Of a stretch of 30,112 nucleotides of DNA, positions 14,476 to 26,949 are shown piece by piece. The stretch's first letter is position 1. Each line of letters starts with the position of its first letter. Made by a program: the position numbers and the translations under genes. This DNA comes from Candidatus Aenigmatarchaeota archaeon (GTDB lineage Archaea; Aenigmatarchaeota; Aenigmatarchaeia; CG10238-14; SCSR01), in the NCBI GenBank assembly GCA_039000165.1, contig JAWBTW010000009.1, forward strand, positions 1 to 30,112, read 5' to 3'. The notes beneath the pieces are model-generated. The model made no database searches, was not told the DNA's origin, and saw only the letters and a list, made by a program, of their open reading frames with translations.

Positions 14476-15030
14476 ATGCTCGAAAGTTTAATCGAAGCGA
14501 TAAAATCTTTCATAATATCTTCTGGGGATTTTGGAATTTTTTTCGGTAATTTCTTAGCTTCAAGTATAATACCAATTCCTTCTGAAGCTGTTTTGTTTGT
14601 TCAAGGTGCTTCTGGCTTAGAAATAGTTAAAGTAACAATTCTAGGAGCAATAGGTTCAACCTTGGGCTCTTTAGTTTGTTATTATCTTGGAAGATATGGA
14701 AGAAATTTTTTGGAAAAATATGGGAAGTACTTTTTTGTTTCTTCTGAAAAGCTAAAGTTTAGTGAGAAATGGTTTAAAAAATGGGGAAGCTATACTGTTT
14801 TGGTAAGCAGAATCATACCAATAATTCCTTTCAAAATATTTTCAATAGCTTCCGGGATTTTAAAAATGGAGTTAAAAACTTATTTTATTTTAACTCTTAT
14901 TGGCTCGTTTCCAAGATGCTTCTTACTTTCTTACTTTGGCTTTTTAGCTTCTTCCAATATTTATCTTTCGATTTTGGCAATAGCAATTCTTTTTGCTGTT
15001 CCTGCCTTGATAGATAGAATAAAAAGATAG
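14476..15030 (+). CDS. DedA/SNARE-associated family membrane protein
   Basis: IIPIPSEAV, GSTLGSLVCYYLGRYG, SEKWFKKWG, SRIIPIIP. Confidence 0.88.
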   Translation: MLESLIEAIKSFIISSGDFGIFFGNFLASSIIPIPSEAVLFVQGASGLEIVKVTILGAIGSTLGSLVCYYLGRYGRNFLEKYGKYFFVSSEKLKFSEKWFKKWGSYTVLVSRIIPIIPFKIFSIASGILKMELKTYFILTLIGSFPRCFLLSYFGFLASSNIYLSILAIAILFAVPALIDRIKR

Positions 15031-15146
15031 CCCCGAGCGGATTCGAACCGCTGTCACGAGGGTTCTTCCTCATCTTTTTTCAGAGCTTTGATGAGACCAA
15101 AGCCTTATACTAAGCTTCGTATGCTTGGCCGCTGCACCACGGGGCT
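15028..15146 (-). tRNA. tRNA-Gln(UUG) with two introns (29/30: 15105-15116; 37/38: 15063-15096)
   Basis: Minus strand AGCCCCG TG GTGC AGCGGCCAA GCAT A CGA[12 nt]GG CT TTG G[34 nt]C CCTCG TGAC AGCGG TTCGAAT CCGCT CGGGGCT A. Central splice helices ATAC/GTAT and CTTT/GAAG. Confidence 0.92.
15063..15096 (-). ncRNA. tRNA-Gln intron, candidate minimal box C/D guide for Um34
   Basis: Guide ATCAAAGCT (15092-15084) antisense to G30-G37 plus the first intron base; box D CTGA (15083-15080); AAGATGA (15076-15070); N+5 position pairs with U34. Confidence 0.7.
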
Positions 15147-24385: not shown

Positions 24386-24445
24386 AGCTTCTTTCGTTTT
24401 ATCACCGTATAATAATATATTGGTTTACCATAATATTATAGATAA

Positions 24446-24527
24446 GCCCCGATAGCATAGTGGTAATGCGCCCGCCTCGTATATTCAAGAAAGCGGGAGA
24501 TCGAGGGTTCGAATCCCTCTCGGGGCT
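24446..24527 (+). tRNA. tRNA-Thr(CGU) with 10-nt 37/38 intron (24482-24491)
   Basis: GCCCCGA TA GCAT AGTGGTA ATGC G CCCGC CT CGT A[TATTCAAGAA]A GCGGG AGATC GAGGG TTCGAAT CCCTC TCGGGGC T. Confidence 0.92.
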
Positions 24528-24547
24528 TTGAAAAAAGGAGGGAAAAA

Positions 24548-24838: not shown

Positions 24839-24924
24839 GCGCTGGTAGTCCAGCCTGGTTAAGACGCAGAACTTAGCGGAACCCTGCCACGGCTGAAACG
24901 CGGGTTCAAATCCCGCCCAGCGCA
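24839..24924 (+). tRNA. tRNA-Gly(GCC) with 12-nt 29/30 intron (24870-24881)
   Basis: GCGCTGG TA GTCC AGCCTGGTTA AGAC G CAG[AACTTAGCGGAA]CC CT GCC AC GGCTG AAAC GCGGG TTCAAAT CCCGC CCAGCGC A. Confidence 0.92.
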
Positions 24925-26831: not shown

Positions 26832-26949
26832 GCAGGGGTTCCCGAGTCTGGTTAAAGGGGCAGGACTCAAGTCAGACTTGAGTTTTGATCCAAGATGAAA
26901 GAAATCCTGTGGCTTAGTGCCTTCCTGGGTTCAAATCCCAGCCCCTGCA
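26832..26949 (+). tRNA. tRNA-Leu(CAA) with 32-nt 37/38 intron (26872-26903)
   Basis: GCAGGGG acceptor/CCCCTGC A; CAGGA CT CAA G[intron]A TCCTG; long variable arm; CTGGG TTCAAAT CCCAG. Confidence 0.92.
26872..26903 (+). ncRNA. tRNA-Leu intron, candidate minimal box C/D guide for Cm34
   Basis: Guide GACTTGAGTT (26875-26884) antisense to GACTCAAGTC (26864-26873); box D-like TTGA (26885-26888); AAGATGA (26892-26898); N+5 position pairs with C34 (26868). Confidence 0.68.

Follow-up and report, generated by a model that had tools for sequence, protein, structure and literature searches.

The window, by which we mean the whole 30,112-nt stretch of DNA analysed here, contains a gene for a class II tRNA-Leu(CAA) with a single intron. 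Its acceptor stem (GCAGGGG/CCCCUGC) and anticodon stem (CAGGA/UCCUG) can be read directly from the sequence, and its anticodon loop, CUCAAG|A, is split after G37 by a 32-nt intron at 26872-26903 (Table 1). Both ARAGORN in default mode and Rfam at gathering score miss the gene. The intron mode of ARAGORN, which gives wrong names to several genes, detects it with an intron of 32 nt, and sets the borders 2 nt upstream, which puts A37 in place of G37. The sequence alone is undecided between these two placements; we kept the intron at 37/38 because G37 then results and because C32 pairs with intron position n-2 in 69 of 69 relatives.

The intron reads TCAGACTTGAGTT-TTGA-TCC-AAGATGA-AAGAA, or UCAGA-CUUGAGUU-UUGA-UCC-AAGAUGA-AAGAA as RNA, and the layout given for it in the first-pass annotation, with UUGA at intron nt 14-17 and AAGAUGA at nt 21-27, agrees with the sequence. 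The eight bases directly 5' of UUGA (CUUGAGUU, hereafter the guide) pair with tRNA nt 37 to 30, which places the fifth of them, G9 (N+5), opposite C34. This contact had also been pointed out at first pass; it is seen in the sequence, and the 34:N+5 pair forms in all 75 of the relatives described below. The ten pairs originally counted hold only in part: G30-G37 with U13-C6 stands, but the two pairs joining intron nt 1-2 to nt 5-4 are incompatible within one molecule, and at most U1-A5 can be added, giving a possible cis helix of 8-9 bp. Folded alone, the anticodon arm with its intron prefers this guide hairpin at -14.8 kcal/mol (z = -1.96), a value equalled by 5 of 200 shuffles.

Table 1. Coordinates of the tRNA-Leu(CAA) gene, the elements of its intron and the related tRNA-Gln(UUG) gene in the window.
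Feature	Position	Strand	Basis or remark
tRNA-Leu(CAA) gene, class II, one intron	26832..26949	+	ARAGORN intron mode; full-length homologues in relatives
Target strand, tRNA nt 30-37 (GACUCAAG); anticodon 26868-26870, C34 = 26868	26864..26871	+	Sequence; pairing statistics, 75 sequences
5' spacer UCAGA, hairpin loop; 0-24 nt long in relatives	26872..26876	+	
Guide CUUGAGUU, N+8 to N+1; G9 (26880) = N+5, pairs with C34	26877..26884	+	Sequence; pairing statistics; covariance model R1
Box D' UUGA, intron nt 14-17	26885..26888	+	GA invariant in 75/75
K-loop loop nucleotides UCC	26889..26891	+	D'-N3-C' spacing as in complete C/D RNAs of the same genome
Box C' AAGAUGA, intron nt 21-27	26892..26898	+	Core GAUGA in 57/72
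3' tail AAGAA, splice-motif strand; G30':C32, A29':U33; AA|A = 3' bulge	26899..26903	+	32:(n-2) 69/69, 33:(n-3) 60/68
tRNA-Gln(UUG) gene, sister cassette	15028..15146	-	Second intron 15063-15096, guide 15084-15090, D'-loop-C' 15070-15083, U34 = 15100

The 34-nt second intron of the tRNA-Gln(UUG) gene in the same window has its boxes at the same positions, as had been reported, with CUGA at nt 14-17, AAGAUGA at nt 21-27 and A9 opposite U34. These two introns hold the two matches to YTGA-N3-AAGATGA in the window, against 0.08 expected, and none of 100 shuffles reaches two, bearing out the earlier view that chance is a poor explanation. The Gln gene has another intron of ~12 nt inside the 5' strand of its anticodon stem, and ARAGORN mis-calls the gene as Leu(UAA).

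Across the whole 783-kb genome, the looser pattern NTGA-N3-4-AAGATGA has 14 matches: six in tRNA introns (Leu(CAA), Leu(UAA), Trp, Met, Gln(UUG) and Cys), one upstream of a tRNA, four in the rRNA operon and three elsewhere. The N+5 register of the guide-and-box unit, which we refer to as the cassette, recurs as G9:C34 in both Trp and Met, and in Leu(UAA), where the spacer is 2 nt longer, N+5 is still an A opposite U34. The 37/38 introns of Tyr (42 nt) and Gln(CUG) (12 nt; contig C3 c61613-61710) in the same genome have no cassette. A further copy lies in the 5' leader of tRNA-Ser(UGA), where an antisense stretch is followed by CUGA-AUA-AAGAUGA (contig C1 43604-43628 (-)), ending 4 nt before the tRNA (c43454-43599). 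Its guide pairs with nt 30-37 of its own tRNA and with two intron bases, with U34 at N+5. A pattern match recovers the leader cassette at 11 of 20 loci from relatives; nine of these have at least 8 of 9 pairs and U34 at N+5, and the relative locus L205 carries a compensatory change at 31:N+2.

The box C/D consensus comprises a terminal box C (RUGAUGA) and a box D (CUGA), which form a K-turn. UUGA-N3-AAGAUGA is ordered and spaced like the internal box D'/C' pair found in archaeal box C/D RNAs, a pair described as folding into a K-loop bound by L7Ae (PMC7994747, PMC1865073). At the level of sequence, the Leu intron module matches one such box D'/C' K-loop plus a guide, or one of the two halves that make up an archaeal box C/D methylation guide. 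The GA of box D' is invariant in the 75 related introns, and among the 72 with parsed boxes it occurs as UUGA in 46, CUGA in 15 and AUGA in 6. A box C' core is present in 72 of the 75 and, as read from sequence only, is GAUGA in 57 of these 72. By our own parse, the distance from A4 of box D' to G3 of box C' is 5-6 nt in 51 of 72 introns, the gap between the boxes ranging from 0 to 10 nt overall. N+1 and nt 7 of box C' are U and A in 58 of 72, and this frequent U would fit pairing with the last A of box C', not with the target.

A search of the 75 introns found neither a terminal, RUGAUGA-like box C in the spacer nor a CUGA box D at the 3' end, and because this terminal pair is missing the module falls short of full membership in the box C/D family. 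The Leu intron also lacks a second guide and box D for position 39, with merely 5 nt following box C'. Archaeal H/ACA guides also contain a K-loop, in a hairpin with an upper stem, a two-sided pseudouridylation pocket and a 3' ACA/ANA; reading the intron as such a guide was rejected by inspection, there being no lower or upper stem and no pocket, and the antisense abutting box D'. Complete C/D RNAs do occur in the same genome, in the introns of tRNA-Ser(UGA) (59 nt; contig C1 c43454-43599) and tRNA-Ser(CGA) (53 nt; contig C14 c6986-7124), in the order box C, 12-nt guide, CUGA, N3, AUGAUGA, guide, box D. Their D'-N3-C' spacing is identical to that of the Leu module, and UUGA appears as the terminal box D of the Ser(UGA) intron RNA.

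Using the Leu, Trp and Met genes as queries in the 60 nearest genomes, we obtained 90 loci with 132 tRNA calls, 123 of them unique, of which fifteen had no anticodon-stem solution under our own rule. Sequences were kept if the loop was CUCAAG, CUUAAG, CUCCAG or CUCAUA and the intron no shorter than 15 nt, giving 76 rows (Leu(CAA) 19, Leu(UAA) 9, Trp 24, Met 24) and 75 unique sequences from up to 60 relatives. Among the rows left out were neighbouring tRNAs and multi-intron genes, some of which (L021, L030, L035) visibly bear the cassette. When each intron is anchored on its best 6-mer complement of nt 32-37, NN and then xxGA come next in 73 of 75; the two exceptions, L057 and L101, have degenerate guides and retain GAG-CU-YUGA. 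Spacer, D'-C' gap and tail length vary among the relatives, whereas the junction between guide and box D' is constant. The comparison of related introns proposed by the first-pass annotation thus returned a shared antisense-YUGA-loop-(R)NGAUGA arrangement, in which the antisense covaries with the anticodon and nt 34 always lies at N+5.

Pairing was scored on a MAFFT alignment of the 75 introns that was fitted to no structure (Table 2). The conserved duplex is short, with six firm pairs (31-36, at least 97%) and pairing at positions 30 and 37 in ~55%; archaeal guides are typically 10-12 nt. Overall, 87.6% of the guide-target cells are paired, against 73.5% after shuffling, with none of 500 shuffles reaching the observed value, and at most 48.5% with slid partners. 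The shuffle control overstates independence because the sequences are related, and in our judgement of these alignments the slid control and the changes over four anticodons deserve more weight. Since pair 31:N+2 competes with the anticodon-stem pair 31:39, its conservation argues for a second fold.

Table 2. Pairing between tRNA and guide positions in the 75 related introns.
Pair	Paired	Compensatory
30:N+1	39/75	1
31:N+2	73/75	11
32:N+3	75/75	0
33:N+4	75/75	0
34:N+5	75/75	9 (C-G to U-A)
35:N+6	73/75	22
36:N+7	73/75	23
37:N+8	42/74	11

A covariance model, R1, was built from 70 of these sequences, which include no Gln gene and, of the Leu genes of the own genus, only L011. In the own genome it scores Trp at 66.8 bits, Met at 61.1, Leu(CAA), itself outside the training set, at 53.7 and Leu(UAA) at 46.0; it also recovers Gln(UUG) at 34.4 bits, a host type outside the training, and gives weak matches to Cys (19.4) and to a spacer element (19.1). 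At E <= 0.001, R1 matches 94 of 151 sampled genomes of the phylum, including 31/31 of the own family, 10/10 of family f4, 7/7 of f5 and 11/11 of f18, the remaining families being matched in some of their genomes or in none. Copy number is 2-7 in most of the own order's genomes that carry the cassette and 1-4 in those of other orders. Under filters so strict that absence is not implied, R1 found no match in 121 sampled genomes of another phylum, around L131 (Candidatus Iainarchaeum), or in four single genomes.

Matches were obtained in 8 of 121 genomes of a further sample from outside the own phylum, around L128 (Candidatus Micrarchaeota). This sample contains two introns with a small hairpin between box D' and GAUGA, two Ser(UGA) introns bearing the cassette with U34 at N+5, and four Trp introns of 64-74 nt (L167, L168, L169, L172) composed of a 5' hairpin, a box C exactly 12 nt 5' of box D', a 12-nt guide to C34, box D' and box C', with the second guide nearly absent. 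By their sequences, these four look like intermediates between a full C/D intron RNA and the minimal cassette. Among 20 small loci from four further members of the family, a clean cassette is present in 15 (Met 3, Gln 3, Trp 3, Leu(UAA) 3, Leu(CAA) 2, Lys(UUU) 1) and was not recovered at L174, L185, L186, L190 and L193. The regular-expression finder applied to these loci is no test of register, because the 2-nt junction is preset in it, and in its permissive form on 3-kb loci it returned mostly noise, so that only the small-locus results were used. Seven tRNA types host the cassette overall: Leu(CAA), Leu(UAA), Trp, Met, Gln(UUG), Lys(UUU) and Ser(UGA). The description of these elements as portable intron cassettes therefore stands as to portability, with guide and anticodon covarying over the seven hosts, but not as to introns, since on sequence evidence the module is also found in the Ser(UGA) 5' leader.

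The bulge-helix-bulge splice motif has two 3-nt bulges on either side of a central 4-bp helix, next to the anticodon stem. When the intron is at 37/38, this helix joins nt 32-35 to intron positions n-2 to n-5, which in Leu(CAA) belong to the 3' tail. Scored over 70 relatives, these central pairs form, in order, in 69/69, 60/68, 14/62 and 39/60 cases (19 of the last compensatory), and the anticodon stem is 100% paired. In Leu(CAA), C32-G and U33-A alone form of the four. In Gln(UUG) the motif, worked out by hand, is canonical, with an outer helix (CUCAUC/GAUGAG) that overlaps box C'. Constraints on splicing do not explain the guide, as the first-pass annotation had argued, because a separate 3' tail serves as the splice-motif strand, and the Tyr and Gln(CUG) 37/38 introns without a cassette indicate that splicing can proceed without it. 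Each intron thus has two elements complementary to the anticodon, guide and tail, and hence competition between them, as described for pre-tRNA-Trp. The fold of lowest energy is of the splice type in Trp (z = -2.72) and the guide hairpin in Leu, Gln and Met.

The genome encodes L7Ae, Nop5 and fibrillarin, with the fibrillarin and Nop5 genes adjacent and close relatives of its fibrillarin found in Candidatus Aenigmatarchaeota. Its splicing endonuclease is encoded by a single open frame of 226 aa that has one catalytic domain. Of the 151 genomes in the phylum sample, 150 have fibrillarin, including all 94 with the cassette, and the sole genome lacking it has no cassette match; this co-occurrence could have spoken against a guide but is a weak test, because fibrillarin is almost universal.

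We consider it likely that the Leu intron is a monopartite box C/D-type guide, predicted to methylate C34 of its own tRNA, and that the same design has been retargeted for Trp, Met, Leu(UAA), Gln(UUG), Lys(UUU) and Ser(UGA). In the mechanism that we propose, the anticodon arm of the precursor would refold into the guide hairpin, the K-loop would be bound by L7Ae, and Nop5-fibrillarin would dock there. Fibrillarin would then methylate the 2'-OH of the nucleotide opposite the fifth guide base 5' of box D', converting C34 to Cm34, after which the RNA would switch, the AAGAA tail pairing with C32-U33 and the splicing endonuclease excising the intron; the excised intron might be active in trans as well. 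The original proposal that such cassettes program wobble 2'-O-methylation is supported in that it fits every comparative test run, and it is from these comparisons that we infer the methylation. The set of host tRNAs also matches the tRNAs with published or predicted archaeal Nm34 (PMC7994747, PMC7668247). Counting against a guide are the shortness of the conserved duplex, the missing terminal box C/D pair, by which C/D RNAs are defined in part, the lack of site specificity reported for a single-site complex in vitro (PMC1635284), and the tethering of target to guide by a loop of 0-5 nt, for which we found no structural precedent. As to scope, the odds slightly favour single-K-loop guides in tRNA precursors, whether in the intron or the 5' leader, being the general means by which Aenigmatarchaeota and some other DPANN archaea achieve wobble 2'-O-methylation.

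The K-loop could instead be an L7Ae-binding structural element only, acting in folding, intron protection or splice timing, with the antisense forming the usual anticodon-intron helix and guiding no methylation. L7Ae is reported to bind K-turns in many RNAs (PMC1865073), the duplex is short, and the guide hairpin and the splice fold compete, all of which would suit such a role; but it leaves unexplained why nt 34 is held in exact register to box D', at N+5 in 73 of 75, while the rest varies, and why a copy sits in the Ser(UGA) leader, outside any intron. With the splice-motif pairing drawn from a different segment, and the Tyr and Gln(CUG) introns doing without the element, we regard this explanation as unlikely. 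We give little credence to the idea that the cassette does most of its work once excised, as a free and perhaps circular small RNA with trans targets such as T-loop C56 or rRNA, its self-complementarity being secondary. The Trp intron of Haloferax is reported to act in trans (PMC11408192, PMC7994747), no match to Trm56 (PF01994) was found in the own, 91.6%-complete genome, and the second-best match of the Leu guide among stable RNAs is the T-arm of tRNA-Tyr, with a C at N+5. The best match is nevertheless its own pre-tRNA, and a shared trans target would not yield guides that covary with the host anticodon over seven tRNA types. A ranking of stable-RNA targets by 12-nt windows, in which Leu(CAA) and the Ser leader were the only guides with the own tRNA on top, was set aside because it is unsuited to 8-bp guides.

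It is also very improbable, in our view, that the cassette is what remains, in decay, of an intron-borne box C/D RNA that was once complete, and is now neutral after the loss of boxes C and D. Such an origin would accord with the box C retained in the Micrarchaeota Trp introns and with the complete C/D RNAs housed in the two Ser introns, but not with retention throughout the family and in 94 of 151 genomes of the phylum sample, often in multiple copies, nor with compensatory changes and invariant GA dinucleotides. Pairing between intron and anticodon is general for tRNA introns, and AAGAUGA overlaps the h' helix in the Gln intron, so that the resemblance might in principle be accidental or a by-product of the bulge-helix-bulge motif. 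This reading is barely credible: the window counts, the pairing statistics, the phylum spread and the splice-motif pairing already contradict it, the strand used by the splice motif being the 3' tail and not the guide, and the Leu boxes having no splice-motif partner.

Bacterial TrmL and eukaryotic Trm7 are protein-only Nm34 enzymes that work without a guide RNA; the product expected of them is the same as that predicted for the Leu module, and the tRNA sets overlap. The first-pass annotation, which had mentioned TrmL, implied less precedent than there is; TrmL is the bacterial route only. For archaea, PMC7994747 describes four Pyrococcus C/D RNAs that target the first base of the anticodon in tRNA-Leu(CAA), Leu(UAA), Met and Trp; the one for Trp is the intron of its target tRNA. 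Those for Leu(CAA), Leu(UAA) and Met share their targets, and presumably their enzyme, with the Leu module, and differ from it in being separate genes with full box sets that act in trans, where the Leu module lies inside the precursor of its own target (PMC7994747). In archaeal tRNAs, Um34 or ac4Cm34 is reported for Gln, and Cm34 for Trp and Met (PMC7668247). The target set and the principle are thus already known. What is different here, to judge from the sequences, is a single K-loop without a terminal C/D pair in introns of 23-46 nt, the tethering of guide to target, the range of seven tRNA types and the leader version.

The euryarchaeal pre-tRNA-Trp guide intron is longer than the 32-nt Leu intron, and the hosts of the minimal module extend, unlike those of the Trp guide, to Leu, Gln, Lys, Met and Ser. 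As described for Haloferax volcanii and for Pyrococcus sR50 in PMC7994747 and PMC11408192, the Trp guide resembles the Leu module in occupying the 37/38 intron of its own target, in addressing C34 by N+5 and in having guide and splice folds that are alternatives. It has both box pairs and two guides, for C34 and U39, with action in trans reported in Haloferax (PMC11408192), whereas the Leu module has one K-loop and one guide in 32 nt. The intron RNA of elongator tRNA-Met in Nanoarchaeum equitans, also a DPANN archaeon, is likewise C/D-type and lies in a non-Trp tRNA intron, tRNA-Trp alone having been known previously; at 66 nt it is twice as long as the Leu intron and has a box C, a box D and a GC hairpin (PMC3491384).

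A single-site complex was reported to be active in vitro and to lack site specificity (PMC1635284), while an engineered halfmer or monopartite K-loop guide (MMG5; Wang, Yang and Ye 2022) with L7Ae is described as strictly specific and efficient on substrates of 8-11 bp, even at 8 bp (PMC9670817). MMG5 has, like the Leu module, a single K-loop and a 5' guide whose position 5 faces the target nucleotide; it is a synthetic RNA that works in trans with a guide of 12 nt (PMC9670817), whereas the natural module is tethered to its target with only 6-8 pairs conserved. We found no published description of natural single-K-loop self-targeting modules in a search that covered sources other than subscription journals and supplements. 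By its sequence, the Leu module can be placed as a new natural variant of the intron-borne box C/D guides, with one K-loop and one guide directed at its own transcript, and it most likely works as box C/D RNAs do.

If this is true, short tRNA introns would be retained because they hold the tRNA's own modification guide, which would offer a concrete reason for tRNA intron persistence. The guide hairpin would bury the 5' splice site and make methylation a checkpoint before splicing. Half a C/D RNA would be enough in vivo and may resemble an ancestral form of guide RNA; as the natural counterpart of halfmer or monopartite guides, so far engineered only, the module would inform the debated question of whether site specificity requires both box pairs. 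One portable module would tie together the wobble-restricted tRNAs (Leu UUR, Trp, Met, Gln, Lys, Ser) of genome-reduced archaea. On the practical side, tRNA and sRNA finders overlook such genes.

Several further elements of the genome were noted. The D' guide of the Ser(UGA) intron C/D RNA forms 9 contiguous pairs with 16S rRNA at GUCAAGCCA, near the decoding centre. The D guide of the Ser(CGA) intron (C14 c6986-7124) pairs with the RGUUCAAGUC T-loops of tRNA-Tyr, Leu(UAG) and Lys, with C56 at N+5, and may, by this pairing, provide guided Cm56, a modification route known from Pyrobaculum. The 31-nt intron of tRNA-Cys (contig C13 c14410-14514) contains UUGA-AAA-AAGAUGA, and the upstream 8 nt pair over the 3' splice junction (GAG|ACCGA), which brings C39 to N+5; this position-39 register occurs only in Cys among the introns inspected by hand. 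In the window, two further tRNA genes at 24445-24528 and 24839-24924 (+), on whose identity ARAGORN and Rfam disagree, have inserts of ~10-23 nt in or near the anticodon loop. The D'-N3-4-AAGAUGA motifs of the rRNA operon (contig C8 1004-1017, 3618-3631, 3725-3738 and 7111-7125 (-)) lie in an ~82-nt 16S insertion (after GGAUUAGAUACCCCGGUA), twice in the tRNA-Ala/23S spacer and in a 23S insertion, and may, from their sequence, be guides embedded in the pre-rRNA.
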